From assembly GCA_020051845.1 (NCBI GenBank), contig JAGVQG010000057.1, positions 1 through 57,742 of the forward strand: 57,742 nt of DNA, given 5' to 3'. This document shows positions 3,178 through 36,991 of the stretch, one piece after another. The notes below the pieces were generated by a model. That model searched no databases, had not been told where the DNA came from, and saw only the letters and a list, made by a program, of their open reading frames with translations. The stretch is from an archaeon. Its GTDB lineage: Archaea; Nanobdellota; Nanobdellia; Woesearchaeales; ARS49. The translations under genes were made by a program, and so were the position numbers. Each line of letters starts with the position of its first letter. Positions within the stretch are counted from its first letter, which is position 1.

Positions 3178-3184
3178 TCGGGAT

Positions 3185-3529: not shown

Positions 3530-3605
3530 TCGTGTTTTGTTTGTCTGTCACCAAACCTTTATAAATCCCGCCGAGTTAGGCTCGCTATAGAAAAAGGGTG
3601 ATGTT

Positions 3606-4163: not shown

Positions 4164-4165
4164 TC

Positions 4166-4684: not shown

Positions 4685-4700
4685 GCGATGTCGATTATTC

Positions 4701-4862: not shown

Positions 4863-4960
4863 TGGTGCACCTCTGGCCGTCTAAAGCGTCTATAATACTT
4901 AAAGGTTGCCTTTATGGGGGTTGTTAGCTGCGGTGTTATTGTTTGCTGAGAACGTCACGC

Positions 4961-19909: not shown

Positions 19910-22900
19910 TCAGGTTCTGCAGGCTAGTTTCGCTGCCTCGATATCTCTTAGCGCTTCTGTGATCTTTACGATGGGTTCTGTCGACCTTGTCGTCACGTCG
20001 CGTGTCAGGTCGGCGTCCTTTGGCGAAGCCTTTGACTTTGATGCGGATAGCGACGCTTTCTGCGCTTGTTCGGCTATCGTGCTCTCTTGGGCTGCGGCAG
20101 GGGGTTGTGCGTTTCCTGGTCTTTCCAGTCTCACGAATGCGAGGCTCATGTCATCGTTGTATATGCGCTTGATGCTTCCGTCTTCTATGGTCTTGTATTC
20201 GGAAAGCAATTCCGCGCTTTGGCGTCTTGCTGCGCTACCTATGAATGTGTTATCAATCCATCTTATCGCGCTATCTACCGCTGCTTTTGTCGATTCCCAA
20301 GACTTAGTGAGTATGTTGTTGGCTTTTTTTGGCAGGTATGCTTCTTCTGTGACTATCTTGTTGAACTGTTCACGCATGGCTTCGACTTCGGTGTAGTCGT
20401 TCGAGACTTTTTTGCCTAGTTCAATCATCTCTTTCGCTGAAGGCACCGCTCCCTTATCTAGTACTTCCTGCAGGCGCGCGTCGAATGACTTGAGTTTTTC
20501 TGGTAGTTGGCGTTGTATGAAGTCATTGATTTTCGCGATGTCTGATTGCGATGCGCCCGCGCGTTCCATCCTCGCTCGGACTTTTCTCGCTAGTTCTACT
20601 ATCTCAGGGGATCCTGGTTGCATCGCTTTTTCGGTGAGCGCGTTCAATTCTGATATTTTTATTTGTATTTCTGATTGTAATGTCTTCTGCACCTCTGCAG
20701 GTGTTCTCAGATCCATTGTCTTGAACATCTTTGTTCTTGTCAGGTCTGTGCTCTCAGCTATTCCGTCATTGCGCAGCACCACTGCTTCGAGTCCGTTTGT
20801 CGGTAGTTCGACGCTCTTGACATTTCCGACCACTCCTACCACAGTGCCTCCTTTTGCGGCTGATGGGTTGAATAATAGTTTTCCGTTCACTCTGCTTATC
20901 GTGCTGATGTCGTATCCGAACATGTGCGCTGTCGCGCTCTGGCTGTTCACGTCAAGCACGACTCCGCTCATGAAATGTCCTGGTAGGCTCTTCATGTTCG
21001 CTTTTGAGACGATTGTTGCCATCTGTTTCAACAATTCATTGCGGCCCATCACTGGTGATAGTGCAATCTCCAATTCCGCGTATGTCGCGCTTGTTATTGG
21101 CTTGCCGAGCGTGTTCTCTACAGTGGTTCTCTTCTGCGCTTCGAGTTTGAGCGCTAGGTCCTGCAGCGCGTATCTGCGCATCCTTGAGGTGTAGGCTCTT
21201 AGCGCAGCCGCTTCTGTGCCGTGGTTCTTCTGGTCGCTGAACTCAAAACTGATGGTGTCCTGTCCATTCACGTCTTTGAATGTCCTTGCGCTTACAGTGT
21301 CGCCTCCGAATGTCTGCAGTTGTTGCAGCCACAGGCCCACGTCTTTGACTCCGATGGCTTTTGCCACTGCTTGCACGTCGGCAGGGAGGTCCTCTAACCG
21401 TGATGCTTCCATGCTCTTGGCTTGCGCGAGCTCTTCATAGGTTATCCTTCCGCCAGGCAGTGTCGCCGGGTCTTTCTTTGTGGCTTCTGTGACGAGTGAG
21501 TTCGCGAAGTCGGATACTGCCCTCTTTGCTATTTCGACACTTGTCTGCACAGCTGAATCTTGTGTGGTGGAGAATGTCTCTATGTGTCTTGTTAGCGCCT
21601 CCACCATTATGTCTGCTTCTACCAGTTCAGGTTCACCTCGCAGTTTCTCGAGCCTCTTCACTGCGTCATTGAGGGTCAATGTCTTTCTTTGGCCCCCGAT
21701 GACGATGTTTATCTCTTCGGTCTCTTTTGCCGCGGGTACTAGTGTCTCTCTTATGAACACGGTGGGTGTCCTTGTCTCTTCGCCCATTATGGTCTCAAGA
21801 CGCATCTGAACCTGCTCTGTGAGAAGTGCGGATTTGGTGTGGTCTTGCGCGGTGTAATCCGTAGACTCTATCCTTGTCTGCAGTTCTTGCAGTATGCCTT
21901 GCTTTCCTTGCAGCACTTCTTCTCTTGTGGTGATTCGCAGTTCGTTGACTATGTTTCGTATCGCGGCTTTTTGTTGTTCTCCGCGCAGTGCGGTCGTCGC
22001 ATGTAGCGCGTCAGGTGCTGTGAGTGGGTTGTTCACCCATTCCGCAATCCGTTGTCGGGTTATGATCTCTGTCGCCGCGAGAACCGCGCGTTCGTACGCG
22101 TTGCCCGAGACGAATTCCCTTGTCGCGGCCGTGTTCTCGACGACGGTTTTCTCGATTCCGGCTGGGAATGCCTGTCTTTGCGCAGCAGCTATCACGTCTT
22201 GCGGTGTGTTTGGTGAGTTTTCGTATAGTTCGGGATTTGTCGCTCGTTCCAGCTCCTGCCTGACTCTCCACGCCTCGCGCAGCACAGTCCGGTCTGTCGG
22301 GGGTATTGTCGATATGAAGTCGGCCTCTGCCAACAAGCCTATCTCATGCGCTCGTGTGGGTGAGAAGCCGTGGTTTAGCGCGGCCGCTTCAGATAGTTCG
22401 TGCGTCAGTATCATCTTTTCCAGTTGTGCTTTCTGGGCAGGGTTTGCCGCTACCCTGTCTGTTATCATCGTGGTGAACGCGTCGATGTTCTCCCTGATTA
22501 TGACTACTTCGTAGATCGGCCTTCCCGTGATCGTGTTTATCCCGATCTCCCTTCTTGTCGCGGGGTCTAGTACAGGGTCGCCGGCAGTTCTTGTGGATTG
22601 GACGCTGATCTTAACTTCTGCCGCTATCGCAGGATCTTGCAGTCCACGCACTGGCAGTTTAGGTAGTTCGATTGTGTTGACCGCGGATAGGACTTTCGGG
22701 ATCACTTCAGATGCTTCTTTGTTTGTCTCTGCTGTTGATTCGACGCTTTCCTTGCCGACTGCGCGTTCGATGACTTCCAACGATCCCAAGTATGCTCCTT
22801 TGTTGCCGTATTCGGCGCTGATGAATTCTTTGCTTCCGATCTTGAGGCCTTGTAGCTGGCTGGGTTTGAGGTTGACCTCTTTTGTTGGTTGTATATTTTG

Positions 22901-25900
22901 GCTGCCTACTTCGATGGAGTTCGTGCCGACGTTCTTTATCTTGACCAGTCCATTTTGGAATACTATCTCAAGCTGGTCCCTTGAGATTTTTAGCTGTCCT
23001 TCGTTGGCGATTTGTAGTCGTTTAGGATCCCCTGCTTCAGACCGCCTTCCAAGTATTATCTTTTCTCCTTCATTGAGTGATAGTTGTTTTCCATCGTTCA
23101 CACGTATCACGACGCCGCCTTTTGGCTTGGCGGCTGGCGCGGATATCTCGGCGCCCAGGGATATCACGACATTCTTTGCGAATCCTATCTGTGTGTCTGT
23201 GGTTAGTGGTGCTGCTTTGAATCCGATGTTCTGTCCATTAACGCGGACTCCGTTCTTGCTGCCTATGTCTTGGATCATAACAACGCCGTTCTCTATGAAT
23301 ACCTCTGCGTGTCTTCCCGAGACTGTCATGTCACCTATGATGAAGTTGTTCGGATTTTCGGTCTCTAGTGCTTTGTCACGTCCTATGACTAGCCTTTCCC
23401 CGGGCCTTAGGATGACTGTCTTTCCTGCGATGGTTATCTTTCGCGCGGTTTCAACTGCGGGGCCAGCGACTATCTGCACTGGTGGTTCGGCGACAGCGGG
23501 CTGTGCAGCGGGTCCTCCGAATATGTTTCCTATCGGCAGTTCTTTCACTTCGACAATCGTCTTCTCTCCTCCTTCTCTCGGGGTCACTTCGATTCGGTCA
23601 GCGACGACCCTGTTCTGGCCGTCGGTTTCCACTATCCTGACGATCTTATTGTTGCCGATTATTCTCTCATCTCCAAGCACGGTCTTGGTTTTTACCGGGC
23701 CTTCTTGTACGATGTTCATCCTTTCAAGGCGTTGGAAGCCGTACATGTCTCCGAAACCTTCGATCTTTCCTTCGTATGTCTTTATCCAGACTATTCCGTC
23801 TAAGTCGACTGCCACGGAATCGAATCTCTTGCCTTGCTTGAGTCCGGAATCAAGTGATTGTGCGAGTCTGTCTTTTGCTGTGAGCGGCACCTTGACCGCA
23901 GGAACCACTGATTCGGGTGCGGCGGGTTTTTGAGCTTTTGATTCTGCCAGTTCGATGGTTTTTGGTATGTCTCCTTGTCCTGTGATGAACTCATCATAGG
24001 TGACTATTCTTCTTGAGATTGAGTCGGCGTTCGGTTTGTCTATCAATCCGGCTGTCTGCGCTTTGTTGAGCATCTCGCGCAGCGCGATTCTGTCTATTGC
24101 TTCGGGTACGACGTATGCTTTGTGGTTTGCAATATCAGATGGATTTCCCTTCACAGGGTTTGTGTCGACAACAATGTAGAATGGGCCGTGCGGACCTGCG
24201 GTTGTTGTTGTATCGCCATTCGCAAGTTGACCGAATTGTCCCTGTATGATTTCTCCTTCAATCATTATTCTAATGATATTGCTTAGACCGCCTTTTTCGA
24301 TTTCTGTTCCCTGGGCCCATAGATTTTTGTCTGCCCCAATGTCCAATACTTCTAGTCGCTGTTTCTCTAGCTTGTCGGAATTTTTTCTATCGGTTATCTT
24401 TTGATTGACTTCTGGGTTGTTCTTCACTGCATCTGAGAATGCCTTTTGTTCGTAAATGAATAAGTATGCGTCAAGGGTTTTCTTAGCGCCAGCGCTTAGT
24501 TGTGATTGGACTTGTGCTCTTATTTCAGGGGCAAGATTAGAGTATATGATGTGTCCCATTATGCCTTTTGATTCAATCATATTTACTACGTTCTGGAGTG
24601 TGTATTCCTGGTCTAAATCTCTCGCGATTATCTCGTTCTGGGCGACTGGCAATTTCACTGCGGGTGCTGGTGTCTGTGCCGCGGGTTTTGGCGATTGTTG
24701 TGCGATATCTTGCGCTGTTTGTATGGTCTCTCTATCTATTATGGCCAGTCGTGTGTTCTGTTTTCCGAACAATTGTGCAAGTCTTGTGCTTCCAAAGCTT
24801 GTCGCGTCGCGTTCGAAGTACAGATTATCTCCTTCGTATCGCATCGTTATGTCTGTGTTGGCTATTCTTCTTGTGTATCCTAATCCTGAAACAAGGTAGT
24901 ACGTGTCAGTTCCTCCTTCGCGTGCGATGTCGACCTTTGCGACTGTGTCTACTGCTGATTCGAACATCGTTATTGATTTTACTCCTTCGCCTGCGGGTAA
25001 TCGTATCTGGTTGGCAAGTTCTTTGTTGACTGTGTCGATTGTCGTCCTGACTTTTGTAGTGGGTGCGGCGGGTGTCACGACTGGTTGCGGTCTTGGTTGT
25101 GCTTCAGGTTGTGCAATAGGCTCGGGCACGACTGGTTTTGCTTCTACTGGTGCAGGTTTTGCGGTGGCTGGCGCTTCGGGTTTAACGACAGGTTCAGGCA
25201 CTTTCACGACTGGTGCGGGCGTTACTGATTCTGGCGGCGTTATTGCGGGTTTCTCGGCTACGGGTTTCGCAATCGCTTCAGCCGCTGCTCTCGCTTTTGT
25301 CAGGTCGATCGGAGTGCCGACTTTATTGCCGCGGTCGCTGCTTCTTAGGGAGCTCAGCTCGACCCAGTCTGATGGTGTGTATTTGACAAGCTGGTTTATT
25401 CCTGTGTAGATTCGTTTCAATGGGACTAGGTTCAGGAAGGCTAATGGAGTGAGCATCCCTGTTGCAGTCACTGTTGCAGCGGTTATGGCTATGTCTGTCG
25501 GTATTCCTAGTTTTGTCAAGTATCTAGGATAGAATGGCATTATTTGCGCTTGTGTTGATTGACCTATGATCTCTCCGTTTTCATCTTTTATGTTCACCTT
25601 TTCTACCCTTAGCACCTTTCCGTCCGAGAGTCTCATCACGTCTCCGACAGCCATCGTGCGTTGGGTTTCTATGCTCTTTCCGAGCAATCCTAGGCTGAAT
25701 ATCCTTGGCAGTATTCCTCTGGGTTGGGTTGTCTTGACTAGCAATGTTCCTTGGTCTGTCGTTCTTAGGGATACTGTCACAGGGGTGGTGATTGTTCCTT
25801 TGCTGTCTTTGATATGCATTGACTCTTGCATTTTGCTGCCGAATATGCCGCCCTCGACAGTGCTTGTTGGTTTCACGACTGCATCGTTTAATTGGAGTTT

Positions 25901-28900
25901 TCCGTCCACAACGCTCAGTGTGCGTCCGTTCTCTAGGGTGTATACTCTGTTGGTGTCGAGTGTTAAGGTTTTGGACGTCCTTGATCCTAGCAGGCTACTC
26001 TGTTCAAGCTGCACGATTGTTTCACCTGTTGGAAGAACGGTGATATCTGTGATGCTTGTGCGTGGTGGTAGGTACTGTCGTAGGTTTGCGGCTTCTTCTG
26101 CTGTCGGTGTGACTTTGTTCGTAGTCTCGGGCGCAACGGGCGCTTGTTGCGCAGGTGCTACAGGTTTGCCCGTTTCTATAGGTGCGGCTTGCGGAGCCGC
26201 TGGCGCGCCTGCTTTTGTGGCTTCAATGAATGTTTGTGCGAGTACTGATTCGTCGACTTTGCCATTGGTCGTTGATTGTCCGACCATATTTGCATATTCT
26301 TGTGATGTCGGTATCTTGTTGTTGAGGGCTTCAGATAGGGTGAGTTTGCCTTCCATCACACCCTGGAGCGCTGTGCTGAGCCTGTCATTGTCGACTTTTC
26401 CGTTCTCAGTGAATCTCTCACGCAGTTTCACGAGGTTGTCGCCTGCGAATATTTCCTTTAGATTCAATTCAAGGTTGCGCTGTATCGATGGGCCTTTTGG
26501 ATCGAAGCCGCTCTTATCTAGATATTTGTAAAGGCCCATCTCGGTCATCATTCTGTCTGCTATCTCTGGATGCAGGGTGTCTGTTGCCAACTTCAGGAGC
26601 TGTTTGACAGTCACTGCGCGATCTGTCGGGAAAGTTGATCCGATCCTATCGAGGTCTTTGTTTCCTTTTATCGCATCCATAGCTGCTTTGTAGTCTGCTT
26701 CTACTGGTTTGTATCCCTCGATTGTTGTCACGCTACGGACGAATCTTAGTGGGAACTCGTGGCGCTGCGGCAGGTTTGTTTCAGGTATCACGAACCTGTT
26801 CTGTTGGGCATCGCTCACGAAAGAATCAGGTGTTGATATTCGTCCATCTGAACCGATGAGGTTCCTTGTCCTTGACAGTCCTTGTATGAATGCGATGTCT
26901 GGTGAATACTTGCCATCGACAGCTACTACGTCGAGGCGCACGCCAGATCCGCCCGCGTCGAGGATCATCTGCATGTTGGCTAGAAGTTTTTCTTGTTGTG
27001 GTCCGAGATTCCTTCCTAGCCGTGCCTGCTCGGCCAGCATCTGTTTGGCGCTTTCGGTGAGAGGCGCGTCTTGCAGCTTCACTACTGCGAGCGCCGCCTC
27101 GCTCGGTATGCCTATGTCCAGATCGCGGCCTTCGCCTGCTGTCGGTTTGGCTCCGCGCAAAGCTTTCTCTGCGTTGCCTCCTGCTATCTGTACGTTTATG
27201 CCTAGTTTGTTGGCGTAGTCAAAGACGCTCGATACTGCTTCGTCGACTTTTATCGTGACTGCTCTTCCGCTTTCGGATACTATGGATTGTTCGTTCCTTG
27301 TCTGTTCAGTGAATGGCTTTGCAGGTAGTGATAGTGCTTCTGCTTGTGCAGGCGCTTCTCTGCGTACCTGGGCTGTTGTGTCATCGAACATGATTTTTTC
27401 TGTTATTACGCTTCCATCTGCGTTTCGCAGGTATGACCCGTCTGTGTTCCTCAATCTTACATTAATCCCTGTGGCATCGACGCTTATGAACTCTGCTTGT
27501 TGAGCATCCTTTCCTTGGCGTCGGACTTCGAGCGCGCTGCCTTCGGTCATTTCTCTTGCGGCGATACGTAATGCCTCTCCGGATCGGGGTTCACCGAATA
27601 GAGGCACTATCTTTGGAGGTGCGGGTGTTACTTCGACGGGTGTTGGTCGTACTGCAGGTTGCGCGACTGCAGGTGTTGCTGGAGCGGCGGGTACTGCTGC
27701 GGGTTGAGCGGCTGCTTCTACTGCTTTGGCTGATTCTGCCAGGTTGCTTCTCACTATCGCTTGCGCCGCGAGGTTCTCGCCGACGATGCTTGCGACGGTA
27801 GCGACTTGGGCCTGACCCGCGCTTTGCACGTAGTCGAATGCTGCTTTCTTTACTTCTGCGCTGTCGCGGCTTATCTCTAGACGGAGTTCGTTCATAAGTT
27901 CTGCCGGCAGAGTCTCTCCTGCCGCGAGCCGTCTCGCGACCTCTGCGTTCACTCCAGCATCACGGAATGGTTTGCCTCCTGCAAGTACTTGGGCAAATCT
28001 GTTGTTGAGTTCCTGCTCGACCATCGCGCGTTTGTAGAGTTCATACTTCTGGACCTGTTCAGTGGTCATGGTCTTGATTTTGAGATCAGTGGGTGGAGTG
28101 TTACTCTGCTGTTCCTGGTATTCTTGTTGTGCTTTCACGAATTCAGGGTCGCCAGTGAAACGGATGAGCTCTGCGGTTGCGGGCTTCGCTGTCTCAGATC
28201 TTGCTTTTGTTGTCGCGTCCTGTAGTATCTGCGCGGCGGTTTCTGCCCTTGCGTATGGCTCGAGATTTACGTCTCCGTTATTCTTGATAGACGCCACTAC
28301 TGCGTTGGCGACCTGTTGAGCGTCTGCTGCGCTCTCGGCGTCAAGCGGGGTTGCCGAGGCTGCTGCTTGCTGTCTCTGTAGTTCTTGTACGAGCGGCGCT
28401 ATCTTGGATTGGTCGTTTATTCCCTCCTTCTGCTGTCTTTCGACTTCTTTGGCGAGTTTTCCGAGGGCTTCGTAATATGTCTTGGTTCGGCTCAGCGCGC
28501 CTCCCTCGGCGTTTGCCATAGATTCAGAAAATGATCCCAATGCCGCGGTCAAATCAGAGGCTGCTTTCTCTCTTATGGTTTTTGCTGCTTCAGGCAGTAG
28601 TGTCGCTTTGTTCGTCTCTATGAATTGTGCCGCGTGTATCGCATTCTGCGCTTTTGGTATCACTTCGCTTACTGCTCGGTCTATGACGCCGCCTGTTTCT
28701 GCTATTGAGCGAACCATTGACTCGGCAGTGCCTGTGGTGATCATTCCGAGCCGCCGTTGCTGGTCAACGACTTCAATGGCTGCTTGGGTGTGTTTTAGGT
28801 TCGCTAGCTTGAACGCTGTTGCGTCCAGGCCGGGTGATTTCATTCCTGCCTTGACCTCTTCAGGTGTAAGCACGCCCGTCGCTTTTGCGCGTTCAGCAGC

Positions 28901-31900
28901 GGCTTCGTTCATTCGTTGCACGGCAGAGATGAGATTATCATTACCTTGGACTTTGTCAAGGGCGGCATTGATGGTTTTCTGCGTCTTACCTTCACCGACC
29001 ACTTCAGCCAATACATTTGCTCTTGCTTTGGTCTCCGCAGCCGCGTATTGTGCGTTTATCTCGGATTCCGCTTGGTTCTTGGTTCCTGCAGTAAGTGATC
29101 CTAGTTTCTTTATCGCGGCGTCTCTTTGAGCGGTCAAAGGTTCGAGCGCATCCTTCACCTTTGCTTCGTACGCAATTTTTTGTGGTTCTGCTAGTCTTCT
29201 TTCCACGGCCTGCGTCGCGAATGTGGCGTCCTGCAACGCGGTCGCTCTTTCTTGTGATGCTCGTTGTGTGATCTCAGGAACGGTCCTACCCAGGATTCTT
29301 CCGGTGGTGCGCGCTGCTGCTGCTTCCATTCCACGCGTGCCGATGGCGAAGGTTACGCCGCCGACCAGGGCATGTCCTGCTATGCTTTCTATGTCGATCT
29401 TTTCTCCTTTCAACCACGCAGAAGTTACTTCTGGAACGACCGCGGGCACTAGCATTGCTGTTTGTGTTATTGCCTCTTTTCCTACGAACTCCGCGAGCTT
29501 ACCGATGGTCTGGCCGCTGTTTAGGGAACCTTGCACGAATGAACGCACGCCATTACCGAAACTCGCCGCCGCGCTGTGCGATATCGATCCTGCACCGAAG
29601 AAGGCAAGTGACGTCGAGTACGCGTTTGCGGCGGCTATGCTCGTGCCCAGGACTCCGCGCTCGCTCAGCGTAGTTATTCCAAGATTGTCCTTCCAGGATT
29701 GTGCGTTTGTGATCTTGCCGTTGTAGGCCATGTCCATCGTGTTTATGGCAAGTCCGCCGCCGTATTGTGCGGCTTGATTCACTCCTTCGAAGATGGCCGT
29801 TCTGGCCAAGAATTGCACGGCAGGTCTTGCGCCAGCCCGCACTCCTGTGGAAAGCCAATTGATTGCTTGTACTGCTTTGGCCCCTCCCATGACGGATGTT
29901 CCAAGTCCCATGGTCGCCAGACTGAGTACTAAAGTTTGGTCTCCTAGATATGTGTCCATCCAATTTTCCTTTAGTCCATATTCGATGTTTGCATCGACGT
30001 GGACAGCCGCGTTCTTGATGTATTCCCGGTTTATGCTGAGCGTTCCAGCTTTTTTGTCTTCAGTGATGACGCCTTGTTTGATGGCATTCTGCTTGAGTCC
30101 TTCATCGAGATTGTTGATGCCTTGTGCCGCGACAAGGCTCATGACGAGACCGCGCGCAACGTTCGTTTTCGCCGTTGCCAGGGAGCTGTCGGTGTACTCG
30201 TTGAAATTTCCATTGACTGCTTGTGTTACGAGTCTGTTGCTCTTTGAGAGGTATGATCCTTCGAGGCGGTGTTCGACAAGATATCTGGCGTAGTTGCCCT
30301 CAAGGTCTGTGGCTGCCGCGCCTGCGTTGAGCGCCATGATGTCGTTCGTGTTTCTGTTGCCTATTATCGAGTCGAGTTGTTTCTTGTAAGCTGCGACTGA
30401 ATTCACGTAGTTTTCTTGCGGCATGGTTTTCTGCTGGGTTTGCAGTCTGTCCATGCCGGTCTTTATCTCAGCCAGAATTTTACTTTGTTGGACGAACGCG
30501 AAATCCGAATCCCTTGTGGTCGTTGTGCCGTCGCTCAGGTATGCGTTCATTAGATCCTGCCCCGATCGTGCGGTCGCCATTCTTTTTCCTGTGAGCTCGT
30601 TGAGGGATTTGACGTCGTTGTCGTTTTGAAGCGCTTTTGTCATTGCTTTTGCGGCGTCATCATAGCGTGTTCCCTTGTCCATGAGGTCGCGCATGCCTTT
30701 CGCGATATTTTCATCTATGCTTGTCTCTAATTGTTGTTTGATCTCGACTTGCGCCCTGTTGAACGCGTAATCCTGCAGGTTCGTGCCTGCCATGTTCTGT
30801 GACTGCATCGAGAAGCTCGGGTGTTTCTGCACGAACTGTGCCATCTGAGATTCGAGAAGCTCGCCTGTCGCTCCGTTCTTTATGGCGCGGTAGCTCTCCA
30901 TGTTTGCGGCTTTCTTGAAGTCGGTCTCAAGAACCTGGTCTGCGGCGTTGCGGACTGTCGCTACCCACTCTTGTGTGTGTTGGTTGTCATAATCTGATTT
31001 CAGTGCCGTTCCGTACTTCCTCTGGTTGTAGGCTTGGTCTTGTGCGAAAGCGAGCGCGAGTGAGGGGTCTCCGTTCATGATGATCTTGGCGCGCAAGGCC
31101 ATCAATTGCATGTCTTTGCTGTTCTCGGCTTGTTTGTCGACGTAGTCTTTTGTTGACATGCTTGGCGCTTGGTCGACCCAGGTCTTCAGTCGTGAATCCG
31201 TGTCAATCATTAGTGCGGAGAAGCTCGAGACTATTGCTCGTTTGTTCTCAGTCTTTACAGTGTCGAGATCATTGACTGCTGTCTTGATTAGGTCTGGTAC
31301 GTTGGCATTCTGGCCAAGTTTTCCTCGTTCTGCCAAGGATAGACCACTGAGCAGCCTGATTCGTTCCTCCTGCGCCCGTATGTCCAGATTGTCAGAACCC
31401 TTCCTGCCTTGTATGTCAGCGAGTGCGGTGGTTGTGGCTTTGACTATGTTCTCTTGGTTTGTGATTTGCTGCTCTAGGGTCTTTTGGTAATCTGTGAATT
31501 GTCCAGAATCAGCTTTGAGCTTGTCTATTCGTTCACTCAGGAATATCTTCTCGTTGGCGTCTGTTGTTCTGCTTAGTCTGTCCTGCAAGGTCTTGATTCT
31601 TGTGTCGATTGCTTCGTTCCCAGTCTGGATCGCGTACTTTGCGCTTTTCAGAAGGTCTTGCTGTCCTGCCCTTATTTTGAGGAGCCTGTCAAGTTCGGTC
31701 GCAGTGGTGCTTGGCCGGCCCAGGCCAATTCTTGTGGCTTCGACCTGGTTGTATTGCGCTTCGGCCATCTTGTCCTTGCGTCCGGCCAGTGCGACATTGT
31801 CGATTGATAGCGACCGCAGGTCGCTTATCTGTTCCAGAAGATCGATGCTTTCGGGTTTGACTCCTTGTCGTGTCAGGAATGATTTGTCGTTTTCAGTCAG

Positions 31901-34900
31901 CGTGTTTGCCTTTGCGCGGGCGTAGACATCGGTCCACTGTTGGTTTTCGTTGAGGCGCTGTGTGAATTCGTGGTCTGCCAGTCCCCAGGCAATCATGTTA
32001 TTATATTGTGTGTTGGCCTGGTAATTTGTTTCACGCGAGTTTTGCAGGCTCTTTATGAGATCGCCGTTCTTCTTCACGACATCGCTGTCGATGTATGCCG
32101 CATCTTTCTGGAGTTGTTTCGCCCTTGTGATGTCTTCATTCAGTTTGGGGTTTGCTTTGAGGTATTCTGGATCGTTGATGCGTGATAGGTCTATTCTCAT
32201 CGCTGCCAGTTCTGCCTTTGCTGCGACGGCTTTATCGTACTTCTGCAGGTCGATTTTCGCGATCTCTGCATTGGTCATGGCGTTCGTGACTGCTTGGTCT
32301 GACGCGGTGGCGGCCGATTTTGTGCTGTCGATGGCGTTGCCGCGTTGAGCGTATGCGTTCGCCATCGTTGTGCTTAGTTGCAATGACTTGATTGTGTTTT
32401 GCACTATCTCGTCGAGCTGTTCTTTGGTGTATGCGCTCTTGTAATTATCACGTATCAGGCTATCGACCGCGTTCTCCATAGCTTTCGTGTCGCCGGTATT
32501 GTCGAATTCTTTGGCGAGCACCAATAGTGCGGTCTTGTGTTCGTCATCCTTGTCTGATAGGACTTGCATGACGAGCGAAGCGTAGAGATTGTTGACTGCC
32601 TGCTGTCCGGCGTTTCCTTTTGCAAGGTCGGCGATTTCTTTCTTCTCGGAATAAGTATTCAATGTGTTGAATGCTTGTTCGTAGCTTCGGTCAAGAGATG
32701 CCTTGATGTCATTTTTGCGTTGGTCGATGGCCTTCTTTTCGTTGTCGTCTTTTGGCTTTGTTGAGTCAAGTTCTGTGATTGCTGCTAATGTGTCATAGGT
32801 GATGATTGTGAGTATGCCTTTTGTATTGGTGGCGTCCTGTCGCGCGGCGGCGTCTTGAAGCATTGTCTGCAAGGCGCCGATGTTCTGGTCGAGCAGGTGT
32901 TGGCGTTCCTCTGTCTTGAGCGCGTTCCATGCAGGGGTGTTCCTGACATTCTCGACGTTCTTCGTTATTGAGCTGGCTGCAGTCGCCGCGTTTGCTAGAT
33001 CTCCGATTCGCACATATGCATCTTTGATCTGTCCGAGCATTGTGTTCTGGTTCTGCTTACCTGCGCTCGCGTCGAAGATGAATGGCAGGGCGGTCTTTGC
33101 GCGGGTTATCAGATCGTTGCTGGCGGTATTGATCTCTCGCTGGGCAGCATCGATTGCGGCCTTGGCGTTGGATGCTTCCTGGGTGTTTTTCGCCGTGGCT
33201 AGTTGTTTCGTCGCTGCATTAAATTGGTTTATCGCGGTGGATGTCTTTGCTTCGTCTATGCGCAATCCGAGGCTTGCCAGGTCATAATTCTTCAGAGCGA
33301 AAGAATAATAGTCGAATCCTTTGAGCGGATCGAAGTCCTTGGCGACTGCCTGGTCTCTGTTCGCCGCCTGCGCTTTGGCCGCGGCTTCAGCAGCCGCGCC
33401 GGTATTTCCTTGTGCCAGGTATATTTGGGCCAGGGTTTCGTAGATGTCTGTTGGCGTTTGCCGTCCTTGTTGTTTGGCGATGAAATCCCTCAGTCCTTGG
33501 CCTGCGTTTTCGAGCATTTCCTTTGCGCGGGCCTGGTCTGCGGGGTTTGTCGAGCGTGAAAGGATGAATGCTTGTTGTGCCAAGTCGTTTGACTTGCGTT
33601 GTATGTCCCTCAGGGTCATCTCGAGCTTGGCGTCGTCGCTCAATTTTGCCCAGACATCTGGATTTTGCGCCTTCATTTCGTCAGCAGTGGCTCCTAGTCG
33701 AAGCATGAGATCATTCTTGTCTTGATCCGAAAGCGTAGCGCTTGTCGCGGATGATATGGCGACTGCTAGTGCATCTTTGTAAGCCTGCTCATTGCGCTTC
33801 GGGTCGTTGGCTATGGCACTTGCTGCCTCCACCAGGTATTGTGCACGGGCTCGCAAGAAATCAGGGTCAGTGTCGGATTGCACTTTGAGTTTTGATGCAA
33901 TGTTTTGGTACATGTCGGCGCGCGTCTTGGAATCGAGAGTGTTCTGCGCTTCGGCCGCGTCTATGGACGCCTCAATCAGACTGTAGACTGGTTGGTCTGA
34001 CTTCGGGAGCGCTGCTTTCGCTGCTTTGAAATCTTTGGCTTCAATGTACGTGCTGACAACGCCTTGAAGCGCTCGTTTGCTGTCCCCTCCTTTTGAGGCG
34101 TATTCATTGAATGCATTCACTGCATCGGCATATTTCCCTTCGGCACGGGCAGTGAGCGCGTTATAGAGCGACACTCTTGCGTCAGCCGGATCTTTGATCA
34201 TCTTCAGGAAGTCCTCGCCCAGGAAGCCCGTCGTCTGGCCTTGGGTGAGCACGCGTCCATAGATTGACGGTGTCTCTATGTTGCCTAACTGTGCGGCGGT
34301 TTGTTCCTTGGCTTTTGTGTATACTACCACACCAAATGCTTTTTGCAGCTCATCTTTAGTTGGTTCGCGATTTAGTTTTGCTTTTATTTCGTCGTATGCT
34401 TGTTGGGTGTATTCCGTCTTCTGGTGTTCTGTGAGCTTGCCCATGTAGTATGCTGTGAGCTCATCTGAGAGCTCTTTTGCTACGCGTTCGCCCTTGCTCC
34501 ATCCCTTCTCAAGGTCCTTGAGGACGTTGACGTTCGCTTCACCGTTCGTGTACTGGGTCTTGTAGAAATCGCCAAGCTTGCCGCTCTGTCCTGCTCCGAA
34601 CAACAGTACGTTCTCGCCTGTTATGCGCAGCACTTTACCGTCGCCATGGAAGACCTTGATGCTGTTGTCCATGGCCTTGGCAAGGTCGCGGCTGAAGGTG
34701 TAGTCTGAAGCGAGCAATCCCGTCTTGTCGTTGAGGACGCTCTGTAGCACTATATCATCGGTGCGCATTCTGGCTGTGTTCTTTTCGACGCCGTTCTCTG
34801 TGGTCTTGCTGAAGGTCTCTGTTGTGCTCAGTGCTTTTGCATTGGTGATCATTGATTTGTCTTGCGCGTTATTCGGGTCTAGTTGCTTTCCACTTGAGTC

Positions 34901-36991
34901 GTAATAGATGCCGTCTTTTAGGAATATTAGTGCGGGCTTGCCATTTACTGTTACTCCAAGCACTTGGCGTCCGTTCTTGTCCTGTATATCGAATTGCTGG
35001 TTGAATGTCAGATAATCTTGGTCATCTGCCGCTGAGCTGCCGACCAGGAAGTATCTTGTCGGATCCCGTGTCTTTTCTTTGGAGTCCGGTGGCGTGCTTC
35101 TGTATGCGAAATTGGCGCCTTTGCTCACGGAATCGACTTTCAATCCATCAGCAGTGAGTATGTGGCTGGGGCCGCTTCCCGCGATGTCTCCGTTGAGCCA
35201 GCCTCTTTCAGGATGGTAGAATCTTGACAAGAATATCTCGGGCTTGCTTGTGAGGTCCTGTTCCAGGCCGTTGAGTGTTTTCTTGTCGAGTTTTGTGTTG
35301 AACAGTTGCTGCAGGGTCATTCCTCCGCAGTTGATTGTGTCTCCTTGGGCAGAACAATCGTAACTCTTCGAGGTGATTGTGCCATCCGCCGCTCGTTCTG
35401 GTACTGTCACTTTTGATTTCTTGCCGTTCTTCAAATCCTCCTCGAGGCGATTTTGCACTGCCTGTAATCCTTCTTTTGCCGCTCGCACTGCTGCCAGGGC
35501 GTTTGCCTTGGCGTCGAGAAGCTCCCTGCCGTTCCCGGTCTGGAGATGATAGGTTACGGCTATTGGTCTGTTTTCCTTGTCTGCCGCTCCTGTGATTAGT
35601 TTGTATCCTGCGATGATCGCGTTGGCTCCTGTCCCGGTGAGCGTGAAATCGGTCATTTCCTGTGCGTTGTTCTTTATCTGCGTCACGAACGACCAGCTGT
35701 TTTCTTTGGTTGAATGGAAGCGGTCATCTGTCGGATGCTCTCCTGATCCTTTTACGACTGCGTCCACGTAGTCCTTTCCGGAGTAACTGAAGCCGGTCGC
35801 GGTCTGGGCTATTGATAGCGTTCCGTCAAAGATCTTGAATTGGTTGTCTCTGTGTGTGACAAGTATTGGTTTGTTGGCGTTTTCCGCCGTGCTCTTCACA
35901 TCGATGGCATCCCCTTCAAGGGTCTTTCGTCGGTAGATGTCGATGGAGCCGGCACCTTCTATTATTACCTTGTCGGTTCCGATATTTGCTTCGATTTTCC
36001 CGTTCTGCAGGTGTGTGATTGACACTACTCCTTGGTCTGTGAGTTCTTTTATCTCGTGGACCGTTCCTTTGAACAGCGACGAGCAGATTGTGCCGGAACA
36101 ATAGTTGATGTTTCCATTCGCATCCATTGCCATGCTGTTGAAGACCTCATTGCCGAAGATGTAGATTGGGGGGTGGCCTTCGCGCAATATCACAAATCCT
36201 TGTTCCTTGCCTTCGAAATTTCCGACCACGTCCTTTCCAACAGGTTGTAGCAGGCGCACTTTATTGAGTCCTGTCATCTCAAGCCCTTGTGGTGGAGTCG
36301 CGCCTTTTGAGCAGTCGTTGAAGGCGGCATTGCACAGGTATGCCTTGCCGTCTGGAGTTGTGAGGAACACTATGTCGGTCGAACCGATCAGGTTCACATC
36401 GGTGTTCGCGAGGTTTGGGAATATCTTCTTCAATGCAGCGTTCGCGGCAGCAGGATCAAGACCTGAGAGTCCGGGTTTCTCGCCCGCGATCGCGTTGAGG
36501 ACTGCGGCGTTGCCGAGCTGATCGACAGTCATCAATTTCTTCATTTCTTGCGGTAGTTTGGAAAGAGTTTCTGGGCTTGTCGTAGCCAGGTGTTGTATTT
36601 GTTCAGCCGTGACTTGCTTCACTAGCGTCGGGTCACCTTCCATGATTTTCATCACTTCGACGAGCTGTTGTGTGTTCGGTCTGCCTTGGTACATCCCTAA
36701 TTGTGCGATTATCTTCGGGTTTGATTTAGCAAGGGCCTGTATATCGGAGAGTTTCATGGATTTGATCTGGTCAGCAGTGACCGATATTTTGTCTATTACT
36801 CCCTTGTAGGCTAGAGGTTGGTCAGGGCAGAAAGTGCTGGCGCAGTCTTTTACGGGCTGTGCGGACGGTTGTGCTGGTTGTGATCCGGTGCTGCCTGTTG
36901 ATGGGTTTTGCGCGAACGCAACAGGGAAGCTGCTGATGATAAGCATGATCGTTAGGACGATGCTTGCCAGTCCGCGTGTTGTCTCGTTCAT
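19910..36991 (-). CDS. Giant 5693-aa secreted multi-domain protein
   Basis: Uninterrupted 17-kb ORF; signal peptide (VAFA|Q); TPR-like helices; hydrophobic segment; CCA/PAP-like NTase, two FHA, HExxE and PP2C-like motifs. Confidence 0.92.
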   Translation of the reverse strand: MNETTRGLASIVLTIMLIISSFPVAFAQNPSTGSTGSQPAQPSAQPVKDCASTFCPDQPLAYKGVIDKISVTADQIKSMKLSDIQALAKSNPKIIAQLGMYQGRPNTQQLVEVMKIMEGDPTLVKQVTAEQIQHLATTSPETLSKLPQEMKKLMTVDQLGNAAVLNAIAGEKPGLSGLDPAAANAALKKIFPNLANTDVNLIGSTDIVFLTTPDGKAYLCNAAFNDCSKGATPPQGLEMTGLNKVRLLQPVGKDVVGNFEGKEQGFVILREGHPPIYIFGNEVFNSMAMDANGNINYCSGTICSSLFKGTVHEIKELTDQGVVSITHLQNGKIEANIGTDKVIIEGAGSIDIYRRKTLEGDAIDVKSTAENANKPILVTHRDNQFKIFDGTLSIAQTATGFSYSGKDYVDAVVKGSGEHPTDDRFHSTKENSWSFVTQIKNNAQEMTDFTLTGTGANAIIAGYKLITGAADKENRPIAVTYHLQTGNGRELLDAKANALAAVRAAKEGLQAVQNRLEEDLKNGKKSKVTVPERAADGTITSKSYDCSAQGDTINCGGMTLQQLFNTKLDKKTLNGLEQDLTSKPEIFLSRFYHPERGWLNGDIAGSGPSHILTADGLKVDSVSKGANFAYRSTPPDSKEKTRDPTRYFLVGSSAADDQDYLTFNQQFDIQDKNGRQVLGVTVNGKPALIFLKDGIYYDSSGKQLDPNNAQDKSMITNAKALSTTETFSKTTENGVEKNTARMRTDDIVLQSVLNDKTGLLASDYTFSRDLAKAMDNSIKVFHGDGKVLRITGENVLLFGAGQSGKLGDFYKTQYTNGEANVNVLKDLEKGWSKGERVAKELSDELTAYYMGKLTEHQKTEYTQQAYDEIKAKLNREPTKDELQKAFGVVVYTKAKEQTAAQLGNIETPSIYGRVLTQGQTTGFLGEDFLKMIKDPADARVSLYNALTARAEGKYADAVNAFNEYASKGGDSKRALQGVVSTYIEAKDFKAAKAALPKSDQPVYSLIEASIDAAEAQNTLDSKTRADMYQNIASKLKVQSDTDPDFLRARAQYLVEAASAIANDPKRNEQAYKDALAVAISSATSATLSDQDKNDLMLRLGATADEMKAQNPDVWAKLSDDAKLEMTLRDIQRKSNDLAQQAFILSRSTNPADQARAKEMLENAGQGLRDFIAKQQGRQTPTDIYETLAQIYLAQGNTGAAAEAAAKAQAANRDQAVAKDFDPLKGFDYYSFALKNYDLASLGLRIDEAKTSTAINQFNAATKQLATAKNTQEASNAKAAIDAAQREINTASNDLITRAKTALPFIFDASAGKQNQNTMLGQIKDAYVRIGDLANAATAASSITKNVENVRNTPAWNALKTEERQHLLDQNIGALQTMLQDAAARQDATNTKGILTIITYDTLAAITELDSTKPKDDNEKKAIDQRKNDIKASLDRSYEQAFNTLNTYSEKKEIADLAKGNAGQQAVNNLYASLVMQVLSDKDDEHKTALLVLAKEFDNTGDTKAMENAVDSLIRDNYKSAYTKEQLDEIVQNTIKSLQLSTTMANAYAQRGNAIDSTKSAATASDQAVTNAMTNAEIAKIDLQKYDKAVAAKAELAAMRIDLSRINDPEYLKANPKLNEDITRAKQLQKDAAYIDSDVVKKNGDLIKSLQNSRETNYQANTQYNNMIAWGLADHEFTQRLNENQQWTDVYARAKANTLTENDKSFLTRQGVKPESIDLLEQISDLRSLSIDNVALAGRKDKMAEAQYNQVEATRIGLGRPSTTATELDRLLKIRAGQQDLLKSAKYAIQTGNEAIDTRIKTLQDRLSRTTDANEKIFLSERIDKLKADSGQFTDYQKTLEQQITNQENIVKATTTALADIQGRKGSDNLDIRAQEERIRLLSGLSLAERGKLGQNANVPDLIKTAVNDLDTVKTENKRAIVSSFSALMIDTDSRLKTWVDQAPSMSTKDYVDKQAENSKDMQLMALRAKIIMNGDPSLALAFAQDQAYNQRKYGTALKSDYDNQHTQEWVATVRNAADQVLETDFKKAANMESYRAIKNGATGELLESQMAQFVQKHPSFSMQSQNMAGTNLQDYAFNRAQVEIKQQLETSIDENIAKGMRDLMDKGTRYDDAAKAMTKALQNDNDVKSLNELTGKRMATARSGQDLMNAYLSDGTTTTRDSDFAFVQQSKILAEIKTGMDRLQTQQKTMPQENYVNSVAAYKKQLDSIIGNRNTNDIMALNAGAAATDLEGNYARYLVEHRLEGSYLSKSNRLVTQAVNGNFNEYTDSSLATAKTNVARGLVMSLVAAQGINNLDEGLKQNAIKQGVITEDKKAGTLSINREYIKNAAVHVDANIEYGLKENWMDTYLGDQTLVLSLATMGLGTSVMGGAKAVQAINWLSTGVRAGARPAVQFLARTAIFEGVNQAAQYGGGLAINTMDMAYNGKITNAQSWKDNLGITTLSERGVLGTSIAAANAYSTSLAFFGAGSISHSAAASFGNGVRSFVQGSLNSGQTIGKLAEFVGKEAITQTAMLVPAVVPEVTSAWLKGEKIDIESIAGHALVGGVTFAIGTRGMEAAAARTTGRILGRTVPEITQRASQERATALQDATFATQAVERRLAEPQKIAYEAKVKDALEPLTAQRDAAIKKLGSLTAGTKNQAESEINAQYAAAETKARANVLAEVVGEGKTQKTINAALDKVQGNDNLISAVQRMNEAAAERAKATGVLTPEEVKAGMKSPGLDATAFKLANLKHTQAAIEVVDQQRRLGMITTGTAESMVRSIAETGGVIDRAVSEVIPKAQNAIHAAQFIETNKATLLPEAAKTIREKAASDLTAALGSFSESMANAEGGALSRTKTYYEALGKLAKEVERQQKEGINDQSKIAPLVQELQRQQAAASATPLDAESAADAQQVANAVVASIKNNGDVNLEPYARAETAAQILQDATTKARSETAKPATAELIRFTGDPEFVKAQQEYQEQQSNTPPTDLKIKTMTTEQVQKYELYKRAMVEQELNNRFAQVLAGGKPFRDAGVNAEVARRLAAGETLPAELMNELRLEISRDSAEVKKAAFDYVQSAGQAQVATVASIVGENLAAQAIVRSNLAESAKAVEAAAQPAAVPAAPATPAVAQPAVRPTPVEVTPAPPKIVPLFGEPRSGEALRIAAREMTEGSALEVRRQGKDAQQAEFISVDATGINVRLRNTDGSYLRNADGSVITEKIMFDDTTAQVRREAPAQAEALSLPAKPFTEQTRNEQSIVSESGRAVTIKVDEAVSSVFDYANKLGINVQIAGGNAEKALRGAKPTAGEGRDLDIGIPSEAALAVVKLQDAPLTESAKQMLAEQARLGRNLGPQQEKLLANMQMILDAGGSGVRLDVVAVDGKYSPDIAFIQGLSRTRNLIGSDGRISTPDSFVSDAQQNRFVIPETNLPQRHEFPLRFVRSVTTIEGYKPVEADYKAAMDAIKGNKDLDRIGSTFPTDRAVTVKQLLKLATDTLHPEIADRMMTEMGLYKYLDKSGFDPKGPSIQRNLELNLKEIFAGDNLVKLRERFTENGKVDNDRLSTALQGVMEGKLTLSEALNNKIPTSQEYANMVGQSTTNGKVDESVLAQTFIEATKAGAPAAPQAAPIETGKPVAPAQQAPVAPETTNKVTPTAEEAANLRQYLPPRTSITDITVLPTGETIVQLEQSSLLGSRTSKTLTLDTNRVYTLENGRTLSVVDGKLQLNDAVVKPTSTVEGGIFGSKMQESMHIKDSKGTITTPVTVSLRTTDQGTLLVKTTQPRGILPRIFSLGLLGKSIETQRTMAVGDVMRLSDGKVLRVEKVNIKDENGEIIGQSTQAQIMPFYPRYLTKLGIPTDIAITAATVTATGMLTPLAFLNLVPLKRIYTGINQLVKYTPSDWVELSSLRSSDRGNKVGTPIDLTKARAAAEAIAKPVAEKPAITPPESVTPAPVVKVPEPVVKPEAPATAKPAPVEAKPVVPEPIAQPEAQPRPQPVVTPAAPTTKVRTTIDTVNKELANQIRLPAGEGVKSITMFESAVDTVAKVDIAREGGTDTYYLVSGLGYTRRIANTDITMRYEGDNLYFERDATSFGSTRLAQLFGKQNTRLAIIDRETIQTAQDIAQQSPKPAAQTPAPAVKLPVAQNEIIARDLDQEYTLQNVVNMIESKGIMGHIIYSNLAPEIRAQVQSQLSAGAKKTLDAYLFIYEQKAFSDAVKNNPEVNQKITDRKNSDKLEKQRLEVLDIGADKNLWAQGTEIEKGGLSNIIRIMIEGEIIQGQFGQLANGDTTTTAGPHGPFYIVVDTNPVKGNPSDIANHKAYVVPEAIDRIALREMLNKAQTAGLIDKPNADSISRRIVTYDEFITGQGDIPKTIELAESKAQKPAAPESVVPAVKVPLTAKDRLAQSLDSGLKQGKRFDSVAVDLDGIVWIKTYEGKIEGFGDMYGFQRLERMNIVQEGPVKTKTVLGDERIIGNNKIVRIVETDGQNRVVADRIEVTPREGGEKTIVEVKELPIGNIFGGPAAQPAVAEPPVQIVAGPAVETARKITIAGKTVILRPGERLVIGRDKALETENPNNFIIGDMTVSGRHAEVFIENGVVMIQDIGSKNGVRVNGQNIGFKAAPLTTDTQIGFAKNVVISLGAEISAPAAKPKGGVVIRVNDGKQLSLNEGEKIILGRRSEAGDPKRLQIANEGQLKISRDQLEIVFQNGLVKIKNVGTNSIEVGSQNIQPTKEVNLKPSQLQGLKIGSKEFISAEYGNKGAYLGSLEVIERAVGKESVESTAETNKEASEVIPKVLSAVNTIELPKLPVRGLQDPAIAAEVKISVQSTRTAGDPVLDPATRREIGINTITGRPIYEVVIIRENIDAFTTMITDRVAANPAQKAQLEKMILTHELSEAAALNHGFSPTRAHEIGLLAEADFISTIPPTDRTVLREAWRVRQELERATNPELYENSPNTPQDVIAAAQRQAFPAGIEKTVVENTAATREFVSGNAYERAVLAATEIITRQRIAEWVNNPLTAPDALHATTALRGEQQKAAIRNIVNELRITTREEVLQGKQGILQELQTRIESTDYTAQDHTKSALLTEQVQMRLETIMGEETRTPTVFIRETLVPAAKETEEINIVIGGQRKTLTLNDAVKRLEKLRGEPELVEADIMVEALTRHIETFSTTQDSAVQTSVEIAKRAVSDFANSLVTEATKKDPATLPGGRITYEELAQAKSMEASRLEDLPADVQAVAKAIGVKDVGLWLQQLQTFGGDTVSARTFKDVNGQDTISFEFSDQKNHGTEAAALRAYTSRMRRYALQDLALKLEAQKRTTVENTLGKPITSATYAELEIALSPVMGRNELLKQMATIVSKANMKSLPGHFMSGVVLDVNSQSATAHMFGYDISTISRVNGKLLFNPSAAKGGTVVGVVGNVKSVELPTNGLEAVVLRNDGIAESTDLTRTKMFKTMDLRTPAEVQKTLQSEIQIKISELNALTEKAMQPGSPEIVELARKVRARMERAGASQSDIAKINDFIQRQLPEKLKSFDARLQEVLDKGAVPSAKEMIELGKKVSNDYTEVEAMREQFNKIVTEEAYLPKKANNILTKSWESTKAAVDSAIRWIDNTFIGSAARRQSAELLSEYKTIEDGSIKRIYNDDMSLAFVRLERPGNAQPPAAAQESTIAEQAQKASLSASKSKASPKDADLTRDVTTRSTEPIVKITEALRDIEAAKLACRT

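Follow-up and report, generated by a model that had tools for sequence, protein, structure and literature searches.

A giant exported protein with cytoplasm-type modules in a woesearchaeal archaeon: a possible host-directed multi-effector

MARTX toxins carry Gly-rich tandem repeats at both ends, an autoprocessing cysteine protease and, at the C-terminus, a type-I secretion signal that is served by transporter genes of its own, and their moderately hydrophobic or Gly-rich regions have been proposed to help translocation. The SPEARE proteins of Nanohaloarchaeota consist of a large extracytoplasmic part, a transmembrane (TM) domain and an enzymatic cytoplasmic end, and serine protease, adhesion (laminin-G) and restriction endonuclease domains are listed for them in the available part of the report (Hamm et al. 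2019, PMC6642349). For the giant proteins of Omnitrophota, TM predictions are described as unreliable in the available part of the respective preprint (bioRxiv 10.1101/2023.11.21.568195). Within the accessible sections of the DPANN literature found, SPEARE is the only giant-protein candidate that is discussed. Here, a giant open reading frame (ORF) is described that is encoded at positions 19910-36991 on the reverse strand of contig JAGVQG010000057.1 from a woesearchaeal archaeon (assembly GCA_020051845.1). The window that was analyzed is this one whole contig with a length of 57,742 nucleotides. The reading that is favoured, with a chance somewhat short of even, is that the giant is a Sec-exported, host-directed multi-effector protein of an episymbiotic archaeon of the DPANN type.

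An earlier note on this DNA had pointed out a paradox, namely that domains which normally work on cytoplasmic substrates stand behind a signal peptide. This paradox is real: FHA domains, a class-II nucleotidyltransferase (NTase)-like module and a probable SpoIIE/PP2C-like module are located behind a Sec-type signal peptide, and this kind of layout recurs in unrelated carriers of one of the modules. According to the favoured reading, the giant would be exported by the Sec pathway and would act as a multi-effector at the contact with a host cell. The disulfide-capable N-terminus would bind or anchor at the surface, a helical part of about 1500 helix-former-rich residues would bridge the gap to the host, and weakly hydrophobic segments would enter the membrane conditionally without anchoring the protein for good. 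The string of modules, about 3100 Cys-free residues on Pro/Ala linkers, would stay unfoldable for threading into the host cytoplasm. Nucleoside triphosphates (NTPs) and phosphoproteins are available only in the cytoplasm of the host or of the producer.

Cytoplasm-type modules behind a signal peptide

The first 27 residues (36911-36991; all features of the giant lie on the reverse strand) were read from the sequence as a Sec-type, cleavable-type signal peptide, which confirms the respective claim of the earlier note. The N-terminus, MNETTRG-LASIVLTIMLIISSFPVAF-A/Q (the slash marks the cleavage site), shows n-, h- and c-regions with a basic n-region, a 19-residue h-region and an A-x-A site (AFA/Q), followed by a S/T/P/Q linker. 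Hydrophobicity, calculated throughout according to Kyte-Doolittle (KD) in a 19-residue window, reaches 2.33 over residues 8-26.

The best-defined family assignment behind this signal concerns the FHA domains. The one claimed earlier was found in two copies. FHA domain 1 (residues 4535-4604; 23180-23389) matches PF00498 with E 6.9e-16 and 58.9 bits at a cut-off of 20.7; FHA chains of the Protein Data Bank (PDB) match at E 2e-5 and are all that the pieces of the protein found there by sequence, and FHA is the only NCBIfam family found on the giant. The motifs GR, SxxH and NG are responsible for phosphothreonine binding in FHA domains, and all three are kept in this copy (GR4537-8, S4558..H4561, NG4580-1). 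FHA domain 2 (residues 4635-4700; 22892-23089) is weaker (FHA_2, E 0.0015, 18.9 bits, cut-off 23.1) and retains GR only, with SRDQ in place of SxxH and NS in place of NG.

The NTase-like module (residues ~3245-3560; 26312-27259) contains GG 3271-2, D3290, D3292, D3354, R3416 and R3419. The region has no sequence match in Pfam, NCBIfam or PDB. The module profiles, among them one of six family members (A6), gave no significant match in the PDB either, a poly(A) polymerase appearing only at E 0.66. In a full HMMER scan of residues 3121-4320 against 1.84 billion representatives, one stand-alone relative of the NTase part was found (P0011, 432 residues, E 3e-9). A profile built from the giant and P0011 then matched two giant ORFs of the same order among 400 other genomes of the phylum, G525 (3096 residues, E 4e-45) and G537 (at least 5913 residues, E 1e-33), the latter with the module at its C-terminus; weaker copies are present in G005 and G031. 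D3290, D3292, D3354, R3416 and R3419 (RxxR) are invariant in all six members of this family, which share a Gly-rich turn (GG, GS or AS) 18 residues upstream of the DxD motif. As a reference, six bacterial proteins of the CCA-adding/poly(A)-polymerase family were chosen by PF01743. The A6 profile aligned with them in hhalign over 246 columns with a probability of 92.9%, an E of 3.8e-7 and a score of 59.2, so that the alignment extends from the head with GG...DxD as far as the neck with RxxRF, and the controls (ten column-shuffled, one reversed and one unrelated) did not exceed 19.0. As the giant alone scored only 13.2, which is not significant, the assignment rests on the family. It supports the earlier claim in the form of a class-II CCA/poly(A)-polymerase-type NTase-like module with a conserved Asp triad. 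In comparison to the class-II nucleotidyltransferases of PF01743, the predicted module keeps the GG...DxD motif, the third Asp and the RxxRF helix, so that head and neck are covered, but it lies below sequence detection by Pfam and PDB and forms part of giant proteins, where a signal peptide precedes it.

A further module of the giant has no name. In the HMMER scan described above, 50 of the 51 non-self matches fall on residues ~4105-4340 (23972-24679), with the conserved series KGG...IMxEG...GPHGP[YF]Y...AY[LIV]VP...TYxEF. No Pfam family was found in any of the 24 relatives scanned, and the giant's module has neither an NCBIfam match nor a PDB sequence match by family profile. When 185,579 species genomes were scanned for AGPHGP[YF]Y[VI] in the form of a degenerate DNA motif, all seven sites obtained were true members of the family. 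They belong to Chlamydiae (two), Omnitrophota (two; ORFs of at least 1805 and at least 2666 residues), Oligoflexia, Micrarchaeota (at least 2489 residues) and Woesearchaeota (at least 1766 residues), all of which we take to be host-dependent or predatory lineages. The module was thus seen in both domains of life only in such presumably host-dependent or predatory lineages, and it merits a structure and an activity assay whatever the role of the giant.

An AlphaFold2 (AF2) model from 38 sequences, with a mean predicted local distance difference test (pLDDT) of 80.5, consists of a helical N-lobe and an alpha/beta core with pLDDT above 90. The best structural matches of the core are enzymes of the ADP-ribosyltransferase (ART) fold, Tpt1 and DarT, and they are weak (Foldseek top match Tpt1, E 0.51); a further comparison of the fold yielded no more than Tpt1. 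The triad order H-Y-[EDQ] is used to classify ART-type enzymes, and the conserved series of the module, H4268 (36/38), Y4293 (36/38) and position 4334 (E in 22, D in 8 and Q in 3 of 36), is compatible with this order. In a profile test, one KptA sequence from E. coli scored no better than shuffled controls, and PF01885 proteins that could serve as references were found in none of 151 genomes of the phylum and none of five bacterial genomes. An ART fold of the module is considered unlikely, and the module is best left unassigned.

Several carriers of this module share the layout of the giant. P0040 (1071 residues), P0041 (945 residues) and P0021 (4537 residues) have a signal peptide, no later KD peak of 1.5 or more, and one, zero and zero cysteines, respectively. 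Because these carriers combine a signal peptide with zero to one cysteine and lack an anchor, a cytoplasm-type module behind a signal peptide in a chain without cysteine is a recurring design and not an accident of the giant gene. A metagenomic protein of 2000 residues (P0003) has the unnamed module followed by FHA, as in the giant, and also contains a transglutaminase-like Cys-His string and HEYVH; the shared order suggests that the unnamed module and FHA form a conserved pair.

The C-terminal module (residues 5217-5625; 20117-21343), which includes a helical insert of ~170 residues, is probably SpoIIE/PP2C-like. Its motif residues are D5253..HG5257-8, H5356..G5359-D5361, D5409-G5410 and D5613-D5614. 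The PP2C domain of the earlier note found no direct counterpart in family searches: the giant has no match to a PP2C or SpoIIE model at E <= 1, and the whole genome none to PF07228 or PF13672. Neither the ESM Atlas nor a word-based search with residues 5190-5640 gave a homolog, and the AF2 model has a pLDDT of 41.4, too low for a fold search. What speaks for the claim is a transitive link. P0002, a protein of 2944 residues from the same genus, matches residues 5221-5297 and 5338-5464 of the giant in BLASTP (E 1e-7 and 2e-5), and its own segment hits SpoIIE below the cut-off (E 8e-5, 23.1 bits, cut-off 25). By way of P0002 (E 0.007), a segment of a 12,045-residue ORF (G004) is reached that is a clear SpoIIE domain (E 2e-17). 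The four motif blocks are collinear in all three proteins, and the giant retains the three that bear Asp. Aligned with G004 in hhalign, a joint profile of the giant and P0002 scored 28.6, compared to at most 19.9 in 20 shuffles; against seven PP2C_2 proteins the score of 18.6 (P 0.13) was within the control range. In comparison to the SpoIIE/PP2C phosphatases of PF07228, the blocks D-x-x-x-H-G, H..G.D, x-D-G and D-D-x-[ST] are thus collinear in the candidate module, whereas GHG reads NHG, the helical insert is additional and a direct family match is absent. Relatives within the order have still larger ORFs, each with one recognisable module: G004 on its contig C21 the SpoIIE domain in 12,045 residues, G031 on C1 a PP2C_2 domain in 6471 residues, and G537 on C18 the NTase-like module in at least 5913 residues.

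Between the modules, three of the Pro/Ala linkers noticed earlier were located (residues 3087-3128, 3591-3626 and ~3890-3980). The giant also shares with P0002 a module at 24737-25048 that contains GSTRLAQLFG (BLASTP, 37% identity, E 1.7e-9). The region of residues 4730-5190 (21422-22804) has no Pfam family match and contains THELSE, a degenerate HExxH-like string.

Relatives of the giant as a whole are missing. A word-based search gave no relative of similar length and one shorter protein that matches residues 3100-5693; tblastn against the own genome found no paralog, and a BLASTP search of the giant against itself (E <= 1) showed that it is free of internal repeats. For the N-terminal 3000 residues, the 400 other genomes of the phylum gave no relative apart from one marginal match (E 0.003), and the genome from the same genus gave none. 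The C-terminal 963 residues were likewise without a match when 300 genomes of the order were searched. Other giant ORFs of the order share only single modules with the giant, arranged differently, and judged from these comparisons the giant is a species-level mosaic from a shared module pool. Such module shuffling and an N-terminal part of 3000 residues without relatives fit fast-evolving contact proteins.

The giant could also be a wholly extracellular surface or matrix protein, in which the modules are decayed or reused for binding, FHA for instance as a plain peptide binder, with neither delivery nor catalysis. This would explain why, of the residues for phosphothreonine binding, the His and the NG are missing from FHA domain 2, why the SpoIIE-like module escapes every direct family model and why THELSE looks like a degenerate HExxH; the remaining genes of the operon are surface-related as well. 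However, the Asp triad and RxxR of the NTase-like module are invariant in 6/6 members, H4268, Y4293 and E/D/Q4334 of the unnamed module are kept in 36/38, 36/38 and 33/36 sequences, and the three Asp-bearing SpoIIE motifs are present. Conserved catalytic-type residues in these three modules argue for activity. Moreover, the extracellular giants of the genome are Cys-rich and not Cys-free. Altogether, a purely extracellular role is considered improbable.

Cysteine exclusion and hydrophobic segments

The distribution of cysteine divides the giant into two parts. Residues 1-555 contain eight cysteines, all of which belong to four close pairs (50/55, 220/227, 298/303 and 546/555), and the Cys content of 1.44% is normal for the genome. 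Residues 556-5690 form a run of 5135 residues with zero cysteine. After residue 555, the Cys content is 0.02% (counting C5691) in comparison to 1.46% in the other ORFs of the genome with at least 250 residues, and ~74 cysteines would be expected; position-specific base composition still predicts ~30 in the Cys-free run. The run is the longest in the genome by 4-fold, the next longest having 1288 residues, and the ten other ORFs of at least 1500 residues contain 12-131 cysteines each, spread along the chain. An avoidance of stop codons in giant ORFs was dropped as a cause of the Cys loss, since the other giant ORFs of the genome are Cys-rich. The only cysteine past residue 555, C5691 (19919-19921), is the third residue from the C-terminus (...KLACRT). 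The same split is found in P0002, which has a signal peptide and in which all three cysteines precede a hydrophobic segment (KD 1.81, residue 591) that is followed by the modules. Cysteine tends to be absent from polypeptides that have been exposed to the outside and must then cross a membrane in the unfolded state, examples being colicins and the substrates of type-I and type-V secretion. For this reason, export and delivery into a host are favoured for the giant.

The earlier note had also placed a Gly/Ala-rich hydrophobic stretch and a membrane segment in the middle of the protein. The position of the stretch was borne out (residues 2352-2552; 29336-29938), but it is only weakly hydrophobic: its KD peaks are 1.35 (residues 2353-2371), 1.15 (2447-2465), 1.11 (2507-2525) and 1.34 (2532-2550). 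In addition to the segments listed in that note, a charge-free hydrophobic 25-mer (residues 3834-3858; 25418-25492; KD 1.53-1.58) is present, which is followed by KR. After the signal peptide, no segment exceeds KD 1.58. Seven of the ten other ORFs of at least 1500 residues have a TM-like peak of KD 1.65-3.3 past the N-terminal signal, six of them at 1.9-3.3 and five near the C-terminus. The giant therefore contains no internal segment as hydrophobic as the real anchors of its genome (1.35-1.58 vs 1.9-3.3), which favours conditional insertion, and a permanent membrane anchor is doubtful. In the ESM Atlas, the hydrophobic region retrieved hypothetical proteins and, as a lead only, PT-TG (PF14449; score 0.88, rank 11), for which the giant has no Pfam match.

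The main alternative, which we regard as somewhat unlikely, is a type-I membrane protein like SPEARE. Residues 28-2351 would form the ectodomain, residues 2353-2371 together with amphipathic Gly/Ala helices the anchor, and residues ~2560-5693 a tail in the cytoplasm. Upon host contact, the NTase, FHA and SpoIIE-like modules of this tail would signal or act inside the archaeon itself. The earlier note's proposal of a huge receptor with an intracellular signalling tail has in SPEARE a precedent with the same layout, as far as described in the available part of the report (PMC6642349). The cytoplasm of the producer supplies the phosphoproteins and NTPs that the FHA, PP2C and NTase modules need, and the flanks of residues 2353-2371 obey the positive-inside rule. 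P0002 from the same genus shows the corresponding order of signal peptide, three cysteines, hydrophobic segment and modules, and two carriers of the unnamed module (P0004 and P0010) have many strong TM peaks ahead of it. On the other hand, the candidate anchors are weak when compared with those of the other giants of the genome, other carriers of the unnamed module are signal-peptide proteins without any anchor, and if residues 2353-2371 and 3834-3858 both spanned the membrane, half of the modules would end up outside. There is also no known reason for a cytoplasmic tail to exclude cysteine over at least 3100 residues, as the genome's ORFs of cytoplasmic size contain 1.4% Cys on average. The lack of a segment of anchor strength and the Cys-free tail thus weaken the receptor proposal.

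The host-directed multi-effector reading is in line with the company of the gene, as the operon also encodes two pilin-like proteins with immunoglobulin (Ig) domains and a secreted repeat protein. Several points weigh against it. The analysis revealed neither a machinery for translocation nor a domain known to serve it, and the delivery step into the host, like the host and the lifestyle of the organism, is something we infer. Residues 2353-2371 have an acidic flank before and a K/R-rich flank after them, and residues 3834-3858 are followed by KR, as would fit stop-transfer segments of the kind in SPEARE. Trp and His are depleted as well, 3-fold and not 70-fold, so that part of the Cys deficit may be compositional. 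Half of the carriers of the unnamed module have no signal peptide, and some of these may be truncated.

The N-terminal half in front of the hydrophobic cluster begins with a region of low helix-former content that contains the four Cys pairs (35312-36847) and has no Pfam family match in windows of 1200 and 240 residues. Within it, residues 383-466 (35594-35845) gave a marginal PHROG endolysin match (E 8.5e-4) among 47 windows. It is followed by a helix-former-rich region (residues ~800-2340; 29972-34594) and, behind the Gly/Ala cluster, by a second one (residues 2560-3086; 27734-29314). Helix formers amount to 31-41% over residues 200-800 and to 47-56% over residues 800-2300. This composition agrees with the beta-rich region and the helical stalk of the earlier note and is the sole basis for both. 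TPR-like helices, claimed as well, are represented by matches under the Pfam cut-offs at residues 949-995 and 1183-1211 (TPR_19, E 6e-4, 20.5 bits vs 25; TPR_2, E 0.025). A PADLOC match of the giant to LeoA, which is helical, was taken as coiled-coil noise.

Gene integrity, operon and genome setting

The ORF at 19910-36991 encodes 5693 residues plus stop, begins with ATG and contains no internal stop. An assembly chimera or a non-functional open frame has to be considered because the source is a metagenome-type draft in 68 contigs and no full-length homolog was found. Such an artefact is nevertheless so improbable as to be close to negligible. An open frame of 5693 codons cannot arise by chance, and its composition is even along the whole length (GC 0.48-0.53, AT skew -0.37 to -0.42). 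Both ends of the ORF are coupled to the genes beside it: at ATGA the start codon shares bases with the stop of the upstream gene, and the downstream ORF begins 2 nt past the stop of the giant. For four modules, independent homologs exist in other proteins, and archaeal housekeeping genes (thermosome, archaeal-type glutamyl-tRNA synthetase and NOG1 GTPase) flank the ORF on both sides on the same contig. The giant ORF, as claimed in the earlier note, is a real gene. These housekeeping genes and the genome size of 1.33 Mb (estimated completeness 96.6%) identify the host of the gene as a small-genome archaeon of the DPANN kind. A halophile origin was dropped, as the giant is not acidic and has a net charge near 0 per 100 residues.

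The giant is gene 6 of seven co-directional genes that form a tight operon. The other six encode two proteins with class-III-signal-like N-termini and Ig-like domains, a secreted repeat protein of 696 residues, a polytopic membrane protein, a small, possibly winged helix-turn-helix protein and a small membrane/Cys-rich protein. The upstream gene (36988-37944, reverse strand; 318 residues, Big_9 E 2.8e-5) and its paralog at 41258-42274 (reverse strand) encode the Ig-like proteins, which have prepilin-like class-III signal motifs (RRA/QLT and KRG/QLS) and C-terminal Ig-like domains; the 318-residue protein has eight matches within the same-genus genome. The secreted protein (39171-41261, reverse strand) has several copies of a PTSADYQKLS-type decapeptide near the N-terminus and no family match. 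The downstream gene (19513-19908, reverse strand; 131 residues) encodes an N-terminal TM segment and a Cys-rich domain. It has a paralog at 43125-43532 (reverse strand), and the two bracket the operon, each with a Cys-rich domain that begins with DCG.

Elsewhere in the window, 10134-10916 (forward strand) encodes a full-length prolipoprotein diacylglyceryl transferase (LGT, PF01790, E 1.6e-76) in this archaeal genome. Near it, 14544-18359 (reverse strand) encodes a protein of 1271 residues with a signal peptide that ends in a lipobox-like ...TFAS-C, the Cys of which is the sole cysteine of the protein. It has a weakly hydrophobic mid-segment, the string HEMYH (HExxH) and no Pfam match, and it resembles the giant in being exported, Cys-poor and enzyme-like in appearance. 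A protein of 509 residues (50797-52326, forward strand) contains a Peptidase_S74 (endosialidase chaperone) domain (E 1.1e-11), a domain that phage tail fibres commonly carry at their ends. In total, the genome holds 11 ORFs of at least 1500 residues, the giant and ten others, which account for 8.4% of its bases; the ten others range from 1500 to at least 10,011 residues and are located on contigs C4, C7, C55, C8, C24, C61, C37, C32, C1 and C15.

Comparison with described giant proteins and toxins

A literature search that covered papers without their supplements revealed no publication on the giant, its module set, its extreme cysteine exclusion or the GPHGP[YF]Y module. Little is known about the means by which DPANN archaea manipulate their hosts, and the giant offers a different and testable set of modules with conserved catalytic residues. 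More such proteins can be searched for by a simple signature: a chain that starts with a signal peptide, lacks a strong anchor and is Cys-free over thousands of residues.

A more specific reading, which is unlikely, is that the giant is an archaeal counterpart of self-delivering multi-effector toxins. In that case, the Gly/Ala segments would enter the membrane of a host archaeon and the enzymes would be threaded into its cytoplasm. The cargo would then comprise the CCA/poly(A)-polymerase-like NTase, the H-Y-E-type module, which may be an ADP-ribosyltransferase, the FHA domains and the SpoIIE-like phosphatase. If this were true, the unnamed module would be a new effector domain common to Chlamydiae, Omnitrophota, Bdellovibrio-like predators and DPANN archaea.

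The giant is closest in kind to MARTX, SPEARE, polymorphic toxins and the Omnitrophota giant proteins, and it is a member of neither MARTX nor SPEARE. Like MARTX toxins, it is a giant single polypeptide with a string of unrelated cytoplasm-acting modules that is almost Cys-free and has regions that are Gly-rich or moderately hydrophobic. The MARTX-like toxin of the earlier note is nonetheless contradicted in every feature of membership that was tested, and toxin-like delivery is the part of the proposal that is compatible with the results. The giant is archaeal, has no sequence similarity to MARTX, no Gly-rich tandem or other internal repeats and no Pfam match to a cysteine protease, and it carries an N-terminal Sec signal instead of a C-terminal type-I signal. 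A cysteine protease is in fact impossible within the stretch of 5135 residues without cysteine, and the ORFs of the window that were scanned include no gene for an ABC transporter or a membrane fusion protein.

With SPEARE, as far as described in the available part of the report (PMC6642349), the giant shares a size of several thousand residues, a DPANN origin, a predicted location mostly outside the cytoplasm, an enzyme-bearing end, a presumed interaction with the host and a high variability among relatives. It differs in its modules (NTase-like, FHA, SpoIIE-like and unnamed), the lack of a strong TM segment and the Cys-free tail; no serine protease, laminin-G/adhesion or restriction endonuclease domain was found by Pfam in windows of 1200 and 240 residues. 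Polymorphic toxin systems, according to the accessible sections of the respective article (PMC6393860), are alike in that a trafficking signal at the N-terminus is followed by a long region of filament or linker type and in that their enzyme modules are shuffled and vary even among close relatives, but the giant has several modules in series and not one C-terminal toxin. In addition, no recognisable immunity gene is located downstream, where the 131-residue ORF encodes a membrane/Cys-rich protein, and no DUF4157 or other signature domain was found by Pfam. The giant proteins of Omnitrophota, as presented in the available part of the preprint (bioRxiv 10.1101/2023.11.21.568195), are likewise very large and poorly annotated, belong to ultrasmall host-dependent cells and have to be analyzed piecewise; they contain numerous TM helices and SecA_DEAD domains, neither of which was found in the giant. 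On this comparison, the giant is placed among the giant host-interaction proteins of ultrasmall symbionts, with two features that the literature search did not find described.

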